From a virus (Duplodnaviria; Heunggongvirae; Uroviricota; Caudoviricetes), in the IMG/VR virus record IMGVR_UViG_2534681832_000034, positions 1-18,593 of that record: a stretch of DNA of 18,593 bases, one strand, 5' to 3'. Below are positions 1,112 through 18,593 of the stretch, in pieces. Under the pieces are notes generated by a model that saw only the letters and a list, made by a program, of their open reading frames with translations, did no database searches and was not told the origin of the DNA. How positions within the stretch are numbered: the first letter of the stretch is position 1; each line of letters begins with the position of its first letter. A program made the translations under genes and the position numbers.

Positions 1112-1129
1112 ATTTGCTCTAATAAATTT
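1112..1129 (+). promoter_or_regulatory. P1 C1-repressor operator-like site upstream of kilA-like gene
   Basis: ATTTGCTCTAATAAATTT is a near-perfect match to the remembered asymmetric C1 operator consensus ATTGCTCTAATAAATTT, about 70 bp upstream of the 1199 start. Confidence 0.6.
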
Positions 1130-1198: not shown

Positions 1199-1999
1199 AT
1201 GCAACAAACATTCAATGCGGATATGAATATATCAAACCTTCATCAAAATGTCGATCCTTCAACCACTCTGCCTGTTATTTGTGGTGTTGAAATTACGACC
1301 GACCGCGCTGGCCGTTACAACCTTAATGCTCTACACAGAGCGAGCGGACTCGGTGCCCATAAAGCGCCAGCTCAATGGCTAAGAACGCTGTCAGCCAAAC
1401 AGCTTATCGAAGAGCTTGAAAAAGAAACTATGCAGAATTGCATAGTTTCGTTCGAAGGCCGTGGCGGCGGTACGTTTGCCCATGAATTGCTCGCTGTGGA
1501 GTACGCAGGCTGGATTTCTCCCGCGTTTCGGCTGAAGGTAAACCAGACATTTATCGACTATCGAGCCGGAAGATTACAACCTGCTATTCCGCAGAGTCTC
1601 CCTGAAGCTCTCCGTTTGGCTGCCGACCTGGCAGAGCAAAAGCAACGGCTGGAGCAAAAAATGCTTATGGATGCGCCTAAAGTCGAATTCGCCGAACGCG
1701 TTGCTACCGCCAGCGGGGTTCTAATCGGCAACTATGCCAAAGTGCTCGGTCTGGGCCAAAACTATCTCTTCACCTGGTTGCGTGATAACGGAATTCTGAT
1801 CGCAACCGGTGAACGCAGGAACGTCCCCAAACAAGAATACATATCCCGTGGGTATTTCACCCTTAAAGAAACCGTGATCGATACAAGCAATGGAAGCAGG
1901 ATTTCTTTCACGACTCGTATAACCGGCAAAGGTCAGCAGTGGCTGATGAAGCGATTGCTTGATACTGGTGTGCTGGTACCTGTCGCGGCAACGCGCTAA
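1199..1999 (+). CDS. kilA: KilA-N domain / ANT(KilAC) domain protein, 266 aa
   Basis: ATG 1199 with GGAG at 5-nt spacing. The N-terminal region (VICGVEITTDRAGRYNLNALHRASG...GTFAHELLAVEYAGWISPAFRLKV) looks like a KilA-N domain; the C-terminus is the shared ANT-type domain. Confidence 0.85.
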   Translation: MQQTFNADMNISNLHQNVDPSTTLPVICGVEITTDRAGRYNLNALHRASGLGAHKAPAQWLRTLSAKQLIEELEKETMQNCIVSFEGRGGGTFAHELLAVEYAGWISPAFRLKVNQTFIDYRAGRLQPAIPQSLPEALRLAADLAEQKQRLEQKMLMDAPKVEFAERVATASGVLIGNYAKVLGLGQNYLFTWLRDNGILIATGERRNVPKQEYISRGYFTLKETVIDTSNGSRISFTTRITGKGQQWLMKRLLDTGVLVPVAATR

Positions 2000-2028: not shown

Positions 2029-2607
2029 ATGCTGGCTAAAGTCACTTTCCTGAGCTGTATAACGATGAGCGATTTTACTTTTTCTGGCTATGAATTGGCC
2101 TGCTTTGTAACACACTCCGGTCTATCCCGTAGCGCCGGGCATATCCTGTCGCAATGTGCAAATCTAGCGGCAACAACCAGTGAATACTTCATTCACAAGC
2201 CTCACCGCCTGATCGCGGCAGAAACTGGTTATAGCCAATCAACCGTCGTTCGTGCATTCCGTGAAGCTGTAAACAAAGGAATTCTGTCTGTAGAGATTGT
2301 TATCGGCGATCACCGTGAACGTCGCGCTAACCTGTACCGGTTTACACCATCCTTTTTGGCCTTCGCACAACAAGCCAAAAATGCGCTGATTGAAAGCAAA
2401 TTAAAGATCTCTTCAGCGGCAACCAAGGTTAAAGCTGTTCTCGCTAAGACATTGGCTTTATTTAATTTTTTATCCACACCCCCATGTCAAAATGATACCC
2501 CCTCCCCCTGTCAGGATGACGTGGCAATAAAGAATAAGAAGTCACAAGTTAAAAAACAAAAAGATCAGTTTCCGGCGGTGCCGGAACGACCAGACTCAAA
2601 AAATTGA
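2029..2607 (+). CDS. HTH DNA-binding protein; probably the N-terminal part of a longer protein (possibly RepL-like lytic replication initiator)
   Basis: ATG 2029, TGA 2605-2607; helix-turn-helix-like segment AETGYSQSTVVRAFREAVNKGIL; basic Lys-rich tail. The RepL assignment is a positional guess (downstream of kilA). Confidence 0.55.
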   Translation: MLAKVTFLSCITMSDFTFSGYELACFVTHSGLSRSAGHILSQCANLAATTSEYFIHKPHRLIAAETGYSQSTVVRAFREAVNKGILSVEIVIGDHRERRANLYRFTPSFLAFAQQAKNALIESKLKISSAATKVKAVLAKTLALFNFLSTPPCQNDTPSPCQDDVAIKNKKSQVKKQKDQFPAVPERPDSKN

Positions 2608-2873
2608 CTTCATGGATCGCTGAGGCAAAAGCAAAGGCTGACAATCTGCGGTTATCCAAAAAACGCGCTCAAAAACATGAGTTCAAGCAGAAAGTAGAGG
2701 CGGCAGCGCGGAAATATGCTTACCTGAAGGACAAGCGTTCTCCTGATATTGGCGGGATATCAAACTTCGATAATCTGCCGCATTGCATGACGGTAAACGA
2801 AGCTCTTAATGCGGTTTTAGCCAAAAATAAAGATAACGAACAATGGGGTATACCGGCAGGATTCAGAGGGTGA
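2604..2873 (+). CDS. ORF with no in-frame ATG near its 5' end; likely the -1-frame continuation of 2029-2607
   Basis: This frame is open from 2553 (stop at 2550-2552). It overlaps the upstream stop as TTGA and has no SD; the first in-frame Met is near the C-terminus. Confidence 0.4.
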   Translation: MTSWIAEAKAKADNLRLSKKRAQKHEFKQKVEAAARKYAYLKDKRSPDIGGISNFDNLPHCMTVNEALNAVLAKNKDNEQWGIPAGFRG

Positions 2874-2923: not shown

Positions 2924-3169
2924 ATGCAATCTGATTTTTTACAGTTAGCGATCGCTTTTGCAGGATATGTTTGTATTGGCTTCTGTGTATACATGATCAG
3001 CCGAAAAATGCTTGTCGATATCGACCGCAAAGAACGAGCAGAGGAGATCTTAGTATGGATTTTCTTTGGCGCGGTCTGGCCATTAGGGATCATGTTTGCT
3101 GCAACATTTCTTCTGATGTGGATATTCACCCTTCCAGGTGATTTCTATAGAAAAAAAGCCAGACATTGA
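2924..3169 (+). CDS. Small membrane protein, 81 aa, two predicted TM helices
   Basis: ATG 2924 preceded by GAGGTCGGAG; hydrophobic stretches LAIAFAGYVCIGFCVYMI and ILVWIFFGAVWPLGIMFAATFLLMWIF; TGA 3167-3169. Confidence 0.55.
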   Translation: MQSDFLQLAIAFAGYVCIGFCVYMISRKMLVDIDRKERAEEILVWIFFGAVWPLGIMFAATFLLMWIFTLPGDFYRKKARH

Positions 3170-3239
3170 TACAATCGTTGCGGGTGCTTGAGGCTATCTG
3201 CTTCAGGCATTACCCGAAAAGCAGATAGAAGAAAGCCCC

Positions 3240-3307
3240 AGATAACATTACGCGTCCTGCAAGACGCTTAACATTAATCTGAGGCCATATCTATGCTTAG
3301 CATACGT
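3240..3307 (-). ncRNA. sok: Predicted Sok-like antisense RNA covering the mok start region
   Basis: Minus-strand promoter: -35 TTGACC (plus 3337-3332), 18-bp spacer, -10 TAATCT (plus 3313-3308). The transcript would run antisense across the mok ATG (3293). A stem GCGTC/GACGC at about 3251-3266 is a candidate 3' structure. Ends are approximate. Confidence 0.45.
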
Positions 3308-3499
3308 AGATTAGCCTCTTACCGACCAAAAGGTCAAGGAGAAGCAGGCTATGAAGCAGCAAAAAGCGATGTTAATCGCTCTGATCGTCATCTGTTTAAC
3401 CGTCATTGTGACGGCACTGGTAACGAGGAAAGACCTCTGCGAGGTACGAATCCGAACCGGCCAGACGGAGGTCACTGTCTTCACAGCCTACGAATCTGA
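3293..3499 (+). CDS. mok: mok-like overlapping reading frame (translation-coupling ORF of the hok locus)
   Basis: ATG 3293; 68-codon ORF overlapping almost all of hok in another frame, as in hok/mok/sok loci. Confidence 0.5.
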   Translation: MLSIRRLASYRPKGQGEAGYEAAKSDVNRSDRHLFNRHCDGTGNEERPLRGTNPNRPDGGHCLHSLRI

Positions 3500-3506
3500 A
3501 AGGTAA
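3351..3506 (+). CDS. hok: Hok/Gef-family type I toxin, 51 aa
   Basis: Translation MKQQKAMLIALIVICLTVIVTALVTRKDLCEVRIRTGQTEVTVFTAYESER matches the Hok family pattern (LIVxCLT...LTRKxLCExRxRxG..EV.AF.AYES). AAGGAG precedes the ATG. The leader (GGTGCTTGAGGC..., TAGCCTCTTACCG, CAAGGAGAAG) resembles the R1 hok mRNA as I remember it. Confidence 0.8.
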   Translation: MKQQKAMLIALIVICLTVIVTALVTRKDLCEVRIRTGQTEVTVFTAYESER

Positions 3507-4143: not shown

Positions 4144-4725
4144 TTACTGGAACGCCCGAACAATATCGGAGCTGTTATATATCGAAGAACCGGTCAACTG
4201 GAGGTTGACGGTGTTTTTCAGGAAATGCCCATTGCTGTCCCTGGGCGCATCGAGATCGAAACTTATGTCCTGGATAGCGACATCAATGATGTTGATCTGG
4301 CGACCAATGTTTAGCGTCACACGCTCCGGGATTCGACCACCAATACTGGCATCTTTAAGTTCCGGGCTAATCATCGCTGACAATGCGGCGATAGCTCCTG
4401 AAACCTCCGTGAATGGATCAAACAAAGCGATGAAAGTTACTGGCAGCGTGAAAGTTGGCGGTGTTCCCCCCTCCCAAACCATTAAGCTGTTCCAACGGGC
4501 CACCGACGTTGTTTCAGTACCAACCTGCGCAAAACCACTGAAGGCACCAGCAACAGACCCCATGGACATACCGGTAAACGGCGCTTCCCAATTCTGGGCC
4601 ATGTTCATTGCTGCCCCCTGGCTGATATATCCGGTAACCTGGTACTGAGAGTTCGTTAAAGTAACTTTCAGAAATGGCGATACACCGTCAGCCTGGCTGT
4701 AAACCCCATAAGGTATAGGTGCCAT
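4144..4725 (-). CDS. Late-operon structural/morphogenesis protein, 193 aa (function unassigned)
   Basis: ATG at 4725 (minus); Gly/Ala/Ser/Thr-rich composition typical of virion proteins; packed 11 nt upstream of the next gene. Confidence 0.8.
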   Translation of the reverse strand: MAPIPYGVYSQADGVSPFLKVTLTNSQYQVTGYISQGAAMNMAQNWEAPFTGMSMGSVAGAFSGFAQVGTETTSVARWNSLMVWEGGTPPTFTLPVTFIALFDPFTEVSGAIAALSAMISPELKDASIGGRIPERVTLNIGRQINIIDVAIQDISFDLDAPRDSNGHFLKNTVNLQLTGSSIYNSSDIVRAFQ

Positions 4726-9022: not shown

Positions 9023-9075
9023 TCGTGACAAGCAATTTTTTATTTTTTCGGGAGTAGGGGAGGAAGGTAAAATCC

Positions 9076-11548: not shown

Positions 11549-11953
11549 TTATTTGCTAAGAGCAGCGAATAATCGTTCGAAATCGATAGTATCTATAGCA
11601 CGCGTAAGCGCCGGAAGTTCAGCCTCAAAGTACCCGTGTCGATCGTAAAAGAAGGGACCGAAGAGCGAGGCATGTTGGATTCTACTTCGCCCCAGCCCGG
11701 ACACACAGTTAAGCCCATTACCGGCTAAAAGGCTAAAAAACTTCTCTGGATTATCGTGGTAAAGCTGAGAATCAATGGTGGCGGTTAACTCTTCCATAGG
11801 GAAGCACACCCGCCCTGTCTCCCAGGGATATTTAGTCCGAAGCATAAACATTGCTTTCAGCAATTCACATTGAGCGCGGATCGCGTCCGGTTCATAGCCA
11901 GATATGGAGACATAAGCCACGTCCCTCATTCCTGCGTCATCTTTGAAAGTCAC
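11549..11953 (-). CDS. C-terminal portion of the amber-split gene (annotated alone it is a 134-aa ORF with a poor start)
   Basis: No convincing SD at GTG 11953 or ATG 11929; in the same frame as the upstream ORF and separated from it by one TAG; terminator directly after its stop. Confidence 0.5.
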   Translation of the reverse strand: MTFKDDAGMRDVAYVSISGYEPDAIRAQCELLKAMFMLRTKYPWETGRVCFPMEELTATIDSQLYHDNPEKFFSLLAGNGLNCVSGLGRSRIQHASLFGPFFYDRHGYFEAELPALTRAIDTIDFERLFAALSK

Positions 11954-12022
11954 GATAGAAGTAACATCCAGTTCTTTTTCGAAAGAGCGAGCAGCATCTA
12001 CTGGACGCTGAAGTAAATCATT

Positions 12023-12358
12023 CTACTTAATGCGCTCGAGAATCCCTCCCCACATATCATTTAGATATTCGATATGAGCCAAAACCTTATCAAGACACTC
12101 TCGTGTAAACCATTCAGTATGCCCGCCACCGGCGCTTTTCTCCCACGGCGCATTCCAGGGGAAAAAGGTTGCGTGTAAAGCCCGCTCAAGATTAACCATT
12201 GCCAAACGCGTACCACGATAGACCCGTGAAAGCGCAAAATCGGGACTCACTTGTAGCCCTTTAAACCGTGCCAATGGACCACATGAAATGCCGATTTTAA
12301 AAGTATCTCCGTTCTCCGGCACCAGAACGTAGAGGTAGTGTTGTTTCTCTTCTTGCAT
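12023..12358 (-). CDS. GIY-YIG / T5orf172-like domain protein, 111 aa as annotated (ends at an in-frame amber)
   Basis: ATG at 12358; motif HYLYVLVPENGDTFKIGISCGPLARFKGL resembles the GIY-YIG/T5orf172 core; stop is TAG at 12023-12025. Confidence 0.6.
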   Translation of the reverse strand: MQEEKQHYLYVLVPENGDTFKIGISCGPLARFKGLQVSPDFALSRVYRGTRLAMVNLERALHATFFPWNAPWEKSAGGGHTEWFTRECLDKVLAHIEYLNDMWGGILERIK

Positions 12359-14861: not shown

Positions 14862-15082
14862 GTCTTCCTCCTGAAGAAAAATTATCAATGAAGTCCTTTG
14901 TTACCGTGCCGCTTTGTTTAATTCATCAAGAACAGAATCAGGAACCAAAGCGGCGACTACGCTGGCTGTGCTGGCCTTATTTGCTGATGCTTCCGCAAGC
15001 GCGGTACCGATAGCATGGTTATAAGCAGTGAACCGCCCCGGAAATCCTGGAGACTAAACTCCCTGAGAAAGAGGTAAACAGG

Positions 15083-15409
15083 ATGACTAAAAATACTCGT
15101 TTTTCCCCCGAAGTCCGTCAGCGGGCGATTCGTATGGTTCTGGAAAGTCAGGATGAATATGACTCACAGTGGGCGGCAATTTGTTCCATTGCCCCAAAGA
15201 TTGGCTGTACGCCGGAGACTCTGCGTGTCTGGGTTCGCCAGCATGAGCGGGATACCGGGGGCGGTGATGGTGGGCTCACCAGCGCTGAACGTCAGCGTCT
15301 GAAAGAGCTGGAACGTGAAAATCGTGAACTGCGCCGCAGTAACGATATCCTTCGCCAGGCTTCCGCTTATTTTGCGAAGGCGGAGTTCGACCGCCTCTGG
15401 AAAAAATGA
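15083..15409 (+). CDS. IS3-family transposase OrfA (HTH, leucine-zipper)
   Basis: ATG 15083; [21 protein letters not shown]... typical IS3-family OrfA; ends in the A-run frameshift window. Confidence 0.9.
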
Positions 15410-16296
15410 TGCCACTGCTGGATAAGCTGCGTGAGCAGTACGGGGTCGGACCGGTATGCAGCGAACTGCATATTGCCCCGTCAACGTATTACCATTGTCA
15501 GCAACAGCGACATCATCCGGATAAACGCAGTGCCCGTGCGCAGCACGACGACTGGCTGAAGAGAGAGATACAGCGCGTATACGATGAAAATCATCAGGTG
15601 TACGGTGTGCGTAAAGTCTGGCGTCAGTTGTTACGGGAAGGAATCAGGGTGGCCAGATGTACAGTGGCACGTCTCATGGCGGTTATGGGACTTGCCGGTG
15701 TTCTCCGGGGTAAAAAGGTCCGTACGACCATCAGCCGGAAAGCCGTTGCCGCAGGCGACCGCGTAAACCGTCAGTTCGTGGCAGAACGACCTGACCAGCT
15801 GTGGGTGGCTGATTTTACTTACGTCAGCACATGGCAGGGCTTCGTCTATGTGGCGTTTATCATTGATGTGTTTGCCGGATACATCGTGGGGTGGCGGGTC
15901 TCATCGTCTATGGAAACGACATTCGTGCTGGATGCGCTGGAGCAGGCGTTGTGGGCCCGTCGTCCGTCTGGCACCATCCATCACAGCGATAAAGGCTCTC
16001 AGTATGTGTCACTGGCCTATACGGAGCGACTAAAAGAAGCCGGATTACTGGCATCAACAGGGAGTACAGGCGACTCGTATGACAACGCGATGGCTGAGAG
16101 CATCAATGGTCTTTACAAAGCGGAGGTAATACACCGTAAGAGCTGGAAAAACCGTGCAGAAGTGGAACTGGCCACACTAACGTGGGTGGACTGGTATAAC
16201 AATCGACGATTGCTGGGAAGGCTGGGCCATACTCCTCCGGCAGAAGCAGAAAAAGCTTATTATGCTTCCATCGGAAACGATGATCTGGCAGCCTGA
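15406..16296 (+). CDS. IS3-family transposase OrfB (DDE catalytic domain), expressed as OrfAB by -1 frameshift
   Basis: DDE-type motifs ([23 protein letters not shown]); -1 overlap with orfA at A-AAA-AAT-G (15400-15409). Confidence 0.9.
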
Positions 16297-17010
16297 GTTC
16301 ACAGATAAAACACTCTCCAGGAAACCCGGGGCGGTTCACAGTTATGGCTACGTTGGCGCTTTCATTCGCTCGTTCATACTGCTGTTGTAACGCAGTTGTG
16401 GGTGCTGTTGTCTGGTTGAAAACAACCCCAAACTGTTCAGTTGCTACTTTCAGAGATTCAATTTGCTCTTCTGTTAGTGCTGGTGGGGGAGTGGCAGTGC
16501 CGCCGCCTGAACCAGAGCCTGACGAGCTTTCTGAGCCAGTGTTAAGGGCCTGGTTAATCTCCCCCATTGCAGCGACTAAACTTGATGTATTAAGCGCGTT
16601 AACAGCGTCCTCAAGCGATTTAGTAATATTCACATCACCAATGGCAATAGAGATCGGCAGTTCTGAAACTTCTCGCTCATTAGCACGGCAGTAAACATCC
16701 CAACCAATATCGAGTTGAAGCAGCATTGACAGATCTGCATAACCAGCCAACAGGTCCGCGTGCTTAGTTGCCAGTTCTCCAATGTTCGTTAAGCCGGTTG
16801 TGGTTGTTCTGATCGTTGAAACATAGCTGGTAATAGTGTCGGGATAGACAATTGTATCCAGAATTAATCCGGTCAATTCTTCTGCAAGCAGTTTTGCTGT
16901 GTTAGCACTGTTTCGTGCCGATGTTATGGCACCAGGTGTTTTCATCCCACCGGCGGCGGCCAATTTTTTATATGCGGATAACTGGTAGTCTTTTTCCAGC
17001 ATGATATCTC

Positions 17011-17749: not shown

Positions 17750-18152
17750 GCACTGGAAAAACATTACTATTTATAAACTTTCTCGTGAGGCGGATCTGAC
17801 CGACTTAGAAGATAAAAAGAAAATGATCCTTTTCACGCCATGCGGTAGTCAGGATATGGCCAAGTTCGGTTTTGTATCGCCATTTGGTGATAATTCTGAA
17901 GTTATCGCTATGCATGGAAATGGTTTTATCCTTGTTGAAGCAAAGCGCGAAACAAAAATTCTTCCCCCGCCGGTTATCCAGCGAGCTATTCAAGAAAAAA
18001 TTGAAAAACTTGAGCAAGAACAAGCGCGTAAACTGAAGAAAACAGAGAAGGACTCCCTGAAAGACGAAGTTCTGCATTCTCTTCTGCCACGGGCTTTTTC
18101 AAAGTTTTCTGTTATCCAGGCGATCTACGACGGTTCATCGATAGGAATTTAA
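17742..18152 (+). pseudogene. rdgC: RdgC-homologue (recombination-associated protein), truncated to 136 aa by mobile-element insertion
   Basis: [16 protein letters not shown]...[13 protein letters not shown]...[52 protein letters not shown] closely parallels the N-terminal ~130 aa of E. coli RdgC (~300 aa); similarity stops at about 18131-18136 and a stop follows 5 codons later. Confidence 0.7.
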
Positions 18153-18593
18153 ATCCCAAAAAGATTAAAAAACACCCAAAAACGGATGTTTATTCAACAC
18201 TGCCTGCGTGCCATGAGTGCACCGCCGTCAATTAAATGGATCTTATCGATTGATACTGCATATCACTGATGGTTTTTTACCCCATTCCCCTGAAAATGGA
18301 CGCAACTTCTCCGATGCGGCTCTCAGCCGCACACCCGCTGTTGCGCCAGTGGCTCATGCATCAGGACCAGCTCTGTCAGACGGTAGCCCCGCTTCAGCCC
18401 CGTAAAACGCATCTGACCTCCGCACAGGATGCACTTCAGCGGGTCAACCTTCAGTAACCGCTGATACATCCCTCTCCACCTGATTTGCATCGCCGTCTTT
18501 CTCACCGTCTCCGTTATGACGTACACAACATCTTCCAGTAACCGGCGCTTCACCGGACTCAGGAAACCGTAGTACCTCACCATACGGAACCCC
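18137..18593 (-). mobile_element. End of an IS91-family (rolling-circle, HUH Y2 transposase) element, partial; continues beyond window
   Basis: Junction lies immediately 3' of GTTC (18133-18136), the tetranucleotide IS91-family elements insert beside; no terminal inverted repeat; transposase 3' end reads toward the junction. Confidence 0.5.
18323..18593 (-). CDS. IS91-family transposase, C-terminal fragment (N-terminus outside window)
   Basis: ORF open to the window edge; ...VRYYGFLSPVKRR... and a CxxCGG motif resemble the IS91/ISCR transposase C-terminus as I remember it; TGA at 18323-18325. Confidence 0.5.
   Translation of the reverse strand, partial: GFRMVRYYGFLSPVKRRLLEDVVYVITETVRKTAMQIRWRGMYQRLLKVDPLKCILCGGQMRFTGLKRGYRLTELVLMHEPLAQQRVCG

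Follow-up and report, generated by a model that had tools for sequence, protein, structure and literature searches.

A repL gene split by a one-nucleotide deficit in an A-rich tract of a P1-like plasmid prophage

In phage P1 (NC_005856), repL is a single ORF of 846 nt and 281 aa and is annotated as containing the lytic origin oriL. Its product initiates P1 lytic replication and acts on this origin inside its own coding sequence. A 43-bp block named AT2, which ends in a GATCTTTTTGTTT motif and is preceded by a G/C-rich stretch, has been proposed as the DNA-unwinding element of oriL, and a fragment bearing AT2 is enough as a target for RepL given in trans (PMC9948254). The single 846-nt ORF is also present in pEF45-2, pO111_2 (strain 11128, NC_013370), pE2855-2 (AP018798) and p08_4455-1 (CP077541).

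The stretch of DNA analysed here, referred to as the window, comprises 18,593 nt and is the complete draft contig AIGF01000063.1 of assembly GCA_000249795.2. The uninterrupted ORF of about 281 codons expected of RepL is absent from the window, where the gene is divided into ORFs of 192 and 89 aa.

Identity of the split gene

Judged by its sequence, the locus is the kilA–repL lytic replicon of a P1-like (Punavirus) plasmid prophage of E. coli. The gene order in the window is ant, the P53/Op53 region, kilA and repL, with repL downstream of kilA under the C1-repressed P53/Op53, as in the P1 RepL replicon (Table 1). When one A is restored, the two ORFs yield a 281-aa protein that is identical to P1 RepL (YP_006518.1) at 277 of 281 positions and that matches phrog_2418 over its full length (E = 1e-157). 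PF26868 (Phage_P1_RepL) is recorded as a precomputed match for both halves of the gene. The family assignment is based on these precomputed matches and on the identity to P1 RepL, since the local Pfam scan returned only weak, sub-threshold matches of the HTH/MarR type, at residues 55–96 of the N-terminal part. We therefore identify the split gene, from its translated sequence, as phage P1 repL of about 281 codons, a RepL family member in a disrupted or mis-sequenced state. A first-pass annotation of the same DNA had tentatively called the gene "RepL-like" and had taken it to be one gene split by a one-nucleotide change of frame; the identity of 277/281 once a single A is added bears out both suggestions.

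The reading frames given in that annotation agree with the sequence when checked. The first ORF (positions 2029–2607, 192 aa) ends in TCA AAA AAT TGA, the stop codon being 2605–2607. The −1 frame is open from 2553 to a stop at 2871–2873 and is preceded by a TAA at 2550–2552, and the A-rich run AAAAAACAAAAAG occupies 2551–2563. The heptamer A AAA AAT at 2598–2604 is in phase with the first ORF, its zero-frame codons being AAA (2599–2601) and AAT (2602–2604). The downstream ORF has neither a nearby in-frame ATG nor a GGAG-like Shine–Dalgarno (SD) sequence, and its sole possible start is the TTG at 2604. Joining the two frames gives 280–281 aa, in line with the roughly 280 aa first estimated. The 89-aa ORF at 2604–2873 is the version of the 3′ part of repL produced by gene callers. 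The juxtaposition of the two ORFs is not due to chance, because both are parts of one known gene.

Table 1. Coordinates of the features of the kilA–repL region, as positions of the window
Feature	Position	Strand	Basis
C1 repressor operator Op53/OrepL, overlapping P53/PkilA, with three GATC Dam sites upstream	1113–1129	+	Identical in alignment to P1 where NC_005856 annotates OrepL and PkilA
kilA, 266 aa, intact, first gene of the lytic-replicon operon	1199–1999	+	KilA-N and ANT domains; length and position as in P1 kilA
repL, authentic-frame part, codons 1–176, ending ...V K K	2029–2556	+	Translation compared with P1 RepL
AT2, A/T-rich core and putative DNA-unwinding element of oriL inside repL	2524–2566	.	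Description in PMC9948254 and exact motif match; boundaries approximate
Lesion: A6 where intact repL has A7 (repL nt 523–529), a 1-nt deficit that shifts the frame	2551–2556	+	Homologue alignment, run-length audits and allele counts
repL 3′ part, −1 frame, native codons 177–281, T K R S V S G G A G T T R L K K L T S W ... F R G and stop	2556–2873	+	Translation compared with P1 RepL
Out-of-frame tail of the first ORF, QKDQFPAVPERPDSKN and stop, non-native, ending at a fortuitous TGA (2605–2607)	2557–2607	+	Compared with the P1 protein
Perfect 7-bp inverted repeat TTCCGGC-GGT-GCCGGAA, directly after AT2	2570–2586	.	−10.5 kcal/mol, z = −1.8; invariant in aligned homologues
A AAA AAT, candidate slippery heptamer; intact repL reads AAA AAA (Lys-Lys) then TTG	2598–2604	+	Identical in intact homologues

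Several further features surround the replicon. Of the P1 C1 operator Orlf/Op55, only about the first 11 nt are kept (2877–2887), after which the sequences diverge. Where P1 carries rlfA–rlfB after repL, the window has an 81-aa ORF (2924–3169) followed by a hok/sok type I toxin–antitoxin module, made up of a sok RNA (3182–3356; Rfam, 114.9 bits) and a 51-aa Hok ORF (3351–3506). A gene for a nuclease of the GIY-YIG/T5orf172 type (11549–12358) consists of two small ORFs in both the window and pO111_2, whereas p08_4455-1 carries it as one uninterrupted 269-aa gene. Both ends of the contig lie in repeated or mosaic DNA (1–1035 and 18138–18593). At the 5′ end the contig opens within a mosaic ant, which has a divergent block at about 447–505 and an ORF of 326 aa, compared with about 347 aa in relatives; at the 3′ end lies the terminus of an IS91-family element, with an A-run at 18167.

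The A-tract, oriL and the question of recoding

Both the alignment of homologues and the whole-window comparisons place the indel at the first A-run, 48 nt upstream of the stop. The first-pass annotation had proposed aligning the gene with homologues from P1-like elements; these indeed have a single ORF, but the indel lies at 2551–2556 and not at the stop-proximal A AAA AAT.

The six-A allele is rare. It was present in 2 of 518 finished E. coli records and in 3 of 514 PLSDB plasmids, nearly all others having the A7 length (up to 516/518 and up to 511/514, respectively). All 21 phage records had the A7 length and none had A6; the same was true of the metagenome contigs (A7 length in 39/39, A6 in 0/39). 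Among 74 IMG/VR contigs, 70 carried A7, four carried A6 and none carried A8. Overall, A7 and an unsplit repL ORF are shared by about 99% of the finished E. coli and plasmid records. At the protein level, nine contigs encode the 192-aa form, against at least 1000 for the repaired 281-aa product.

Across public assemblies, repL breaks repeatedly at its A7-C-A5 tract. The variants seen among related loci at the equivalent of repL nt 523–537 are A6, A8, A12, A6 together with a C>T change that creates a stop, and an 11-nt deletion; another variant has an extra A after the G. A phase-variable (contingency) homopolymer locus would be expected to switch often in length between close relatives; here, A6, A8, A12 and the 11-nt deletion are distributed over at least nine haplotypes and together account for about 1% of records, many of them from error-prone assemblies.

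The position of this tract coincides with the A/T-rich core of the lytic origin. The 3′ end of AT2 in the window (2554–2566) reads AAACAAAAAGATC, exactly the 13-mer-like motif GATCTTTTTGTTT when reverse-complemented, and its positions 2563–2566 form a GATC Dam site. The AT2 block is 74% A/T and the stretch before it (2498–2523) is 69% G+C. These properties match the published description of AT2, and we conclude that the A-rich tracts seen in repL correspond to AT2 of oriL and are not a recoding signal. The near-invariance of the tract at the DNA level is attributed to its double role, in origin function and in coding for a Lys-rich linker. The missing A consequently has two effects: it shifts the frame, and it shortens AT2 by one base pair, so that AT2 in the window is 1 bp shorter than in P1. 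The inverted repeat that directly follows AT2 could serve the origin as a site for protein binding. We also considered the corresponding hairpin (2570–2586) as a frameshift stimulator and rejected it; it begins 13 nt from the A6 run, its z-score is modest and it is invariant in intact genes.

The end of the first ORF had initially been compared to a dnaX-type programmed −1 frameshift at A-AAA-AAT. We find no support for the comparison, as the split is not conserved, a stimulatory structure is lacking and the trans-frame product would be the wrong one. More generally, the split could be functional, with RepL made by a −1 frameshift at 2598–2604 or on the A6 run, or by transcriptional slippage, as a way of throttling the lytic initiator; we regard this as extremely improbable. 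In its favour is the in-phase X XXY YYZ heptamer directly before a stop. However, the appearance of a slippery site plus stop arises because the native Lys-Lys-Leu-Thr codons are read one base out of frame, and such heptamers are ordinary in the window: A6N occurs 17 times on the + strand, and XXXYYYZ sites number about 4.4 per kb per strand. A two-ORF layout is not conserved either, given the single A7 ORF in about 99% of homologues. Moreover, if the ribosome slipped at 2598–2604, the native TKRSVSGGAGTTRLK would be replaced by 17 foreign residues (QKDQFPAVPERPDSK...). The exact wild-type protein would instead result from slippage of the P-site tRNA-Lys on AAA AAA at 2551–2556, or from one A added during transcription. 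Efficient transcriptional slippage is known from runs of about nine or more, and the A/T homopolymer at this frame junction is only A6, too short by that standard; a single related record, CP042617, has an A12 tract.

The surrounding RNA likewise offers little to a recoding signal. The segment after the heptamer (2605–2680) folds at −13.4 kcal/mol (z = −0.15), no better than shuffled sequence, and neither GGAG nor AGGA occurs as an SD-like stimulator upstream, in 2580–2597. No Rfam family matched within 2400–2800 at E ≤ 1, whereas the ALIL pseudoknot scored 121.5 bits in the same scan. This pseudoknot (15364–15480) belongs to a copy of IS1203, an IS3-family element (15029–16338) that is inserted relative to pO111_2; it is a bona fide frameshift signal and served as a positive control for repL. 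The orfA of IS1203 (15083–15409) ends in AAA AAA TGA and overlaps orfB (15406–16296) in the −1 frame. The window thus does contain an annotated programmed frameshift site with a run of six A just before a stop, a resemblance that can be cited in favour of recoding at repL.

Origin of the missing nucleotide

The first-pass annotation had allowed, as a fallback, for an inactivating indel or a homopolymer sequencing error, and the evidence favours this fallback. Of the two, we consider that the missing A was probably lost when the homopolymer was under-called in an early draft and that the real plasmid carries an intact repL. The same project contributed at least six assemblies with A6 (AIFB, AIFV, AIGA, AIGC, AIGF and AIGH), and those compared represent at least three different kilA–repL haplotypes. 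Three of the four IMG/VR contigs with A6 likewise come from the assembly batch of the window. Homopolymer errors can be seen directly in this project: over 12,088 nt, AIGC and AIGA have no substitution between them and are separated by two homopolymer indels, and each indel disrupts an ORF in one assembly or the other. The sequencing chemistry of the source project was presumably flow-based. The AIF* and AIG* prefixes belong to the draft collection of diarrheagenic E. coli (DEC), a link indirectly confirmed for AIG*, and unexplained frameshifts have been remarked on in DEC assemblies (PMC5592225). Several other carriers of A6 are error-ridden assemblies, among them CP042641 and CP016549, in a region of which every gene is "frameshifted". 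With the gene identity, the position of the indel, the rarity of the allele and the homopolymer errors in same-project assemblies established, we infer that the A6 of the window belongs among those errors.

A second contraction points in the same direction. The backbone of the window is 99.96% identical to pE2855-2 over 11.4 kb, and at position 9036 a T7 is reduced to T6 in the window, an allele found in 0 of 564 finished E. coli records. This run is the first of an intergenic pair of T-runs, TTTTTTATTTTTT (9036–9048), located between a large structural gene and parB. The window has the combination (T6, T6), which is likewise seen in 0/564 finished E. coli records, and relatives have (7,6) or (7,7). 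It follows from these combinations that the second T-run is naturally polymorphic and that contraction of the first is confined to the window.

We also considered a stronger version, in which all runs of at least seven bases had collapsed to six in this contig, and rejected it as too strong; only the contractions at 2551 and 9036 remain rare. It was dropped because the run at 1042–1047, just after the ant stop, is a genuine A6/A7 polymorphism of the population in the fetched loci, because the A-run at 18167 is A6, A7 or A8 across finished genomes, and because carriers of A6 call other runs normally. Elsewhere in the window, the C-run at 4466–4471 is C6 and leaves a 193-aa PmgG-like ORF (4144–4725) intact; pE2855-2 has C5 and a shortened gene, which indicates that homopolymer frameshifts also occur in "finished" relatives.

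Some observations stand against an under-call. Other assemblies of the same project that carry A6 call several 7- and 8-base runs normally, so a miscall would need the particular sequence context A7-C-A5. The A6 allele also occurs in assemblies from other projects that are free of further indel anomalies, and it is common, together with one further homopolymer state, to AIGC and AKNH, two assemblies of separate projects.

The alternative is that replication slippage in A7 truly removed one A, leaving repL a pseudogene and AT2 one base pair shorter; we consider this unlikely. The product would consist of the N-terminal 176 residues followed by a 16-residue nonsense tail, and the element would be kept as a plasmid by RepA/ParAB with its lytic replication impaired. 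That repL can be lost is clear from unrelated, non-artefactual events, which include truncation by IS91 (CP077576) and 5′ deletions (AASXJY and AAXCUS). The A-tract itself is affected by the 11-nt deletion in DARBQI and by A6 with the C>T stop in two finished plasmids, and A8 alleles are among the repL disruptions of other P1-like plasmids. The recurrence of A6 on at least nine haplotypes can be read in the same way, as can CP090325, in which repL alone was flagged as "frameshifted" by PGAP. In the group formed by DADGTQ, JAJANK and CP121349, A6 co-segregates with the haplotype without other indel noise; DADGTQ and JAJANK both have A6 and differ by 10 SNPs and no indels, which looks like a real inherited allele. 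Natural homopolymer length polymorphism also exists in this element, as the 39 loci with A6 and the 33 with A7 at site 1042 show.

Against a genuine mutation in the window stand a population frequency of A6 of about 1% or less, with no case among the 39 metagenome contigs, and its presence in six assemblies of one project on different haplotypes. The window also carries a second homopolymer contraction that is unique to it, sister assemblies differ from each other only by homopolymer indels, and the closest finished plasmids, of the O111 type, all have A7. A more far-reaching proposal is that the A7-C-A5 tract acts as a switch: natural mutations there would repeatedly deprive P1-like phage-plasmids of lytic competence, which could be regained by reversion or low-level slippage. 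We regard this as highly unlikely. The window would then be a genuine "off" variant, in which trace amounts of RepL might arise through tRNA-Lys or RNA-polymerase slippage on A6.

The biological weight of the lesion is small under either origin. If it is an under-call, which we favour, the lytic replicon of the plasmid is normal, and the 192-aa "MarR/HTH" and 89-aa "RepL" proteins in databases are fragments of one gene; the sole consequence would be one of annotation hygiene, including that of PHROG families 8046 and 7057. If the mutation is real, the window adds another case to the P1-like plasmid prophages whose lytic initiator is inactivated, which would bear only on induction and transduction. 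In that case the C-terminal 105 residues would be lost from a protein with a family profile that extends over both halves, and low-level slippage of tRNA-Lys or RNA polymerase on A6 might conceivably regenerate the exact wild-type RepL.

Comparison with described elements

The split is already present in public records. PGAP has annotated "frameshifted" MarR-family/repL pseudogenes in CP090325 and CP016549, and repL is split in CP042617 and CP051361. These copies have the same division into 192 and 89 aa, or near variants of it, at the same A-tract, and do not differ substantively from the window. The split halves even form separate PHROG families, 8046 and 7057. Since repL has long been known and this split is on record, nothing in the window departs from known biology.

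The closest relatives, pO111_2, pE2855-2 and p08_4455-1, have the same backbone genes as the window and are 99.1–99.96% identical to it in DNA sequence over most of its length. All three have an intact 846-nt repL with A7 and a T7 at the equivalent of 9036, whereas the window has A6 and T6.

Programmed frameshift sites of the IS3-family and dnaX types resemble the repL locus in having an A-rich, in-phase heptamer directly before a stop and an overlapping ORF in the −1 frame. They differ in that repL has no pseudoknot, hairpin or SD stimulator, its split is not conserved and its trans-frame product is not the conserved protein; the features that repL lacks here are all present at the IS1203 site. 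For readers of the raw sequence, the conspicuous A-tracts of repL are the AT2 core of oriL, and it is the IS1203 site that shows a genuine frameshift signal.

The P1 lytic replicon (NC_005856) remains the closest described system. It has the same order of ant, P53/Op53, kilA and repL, and AT2 and the 13-mer-like motif lie at the same intragenic position; the difference lies in the tract itself, which is A7 in the unsplit repL of P1 and A6 in the split gene of the window.
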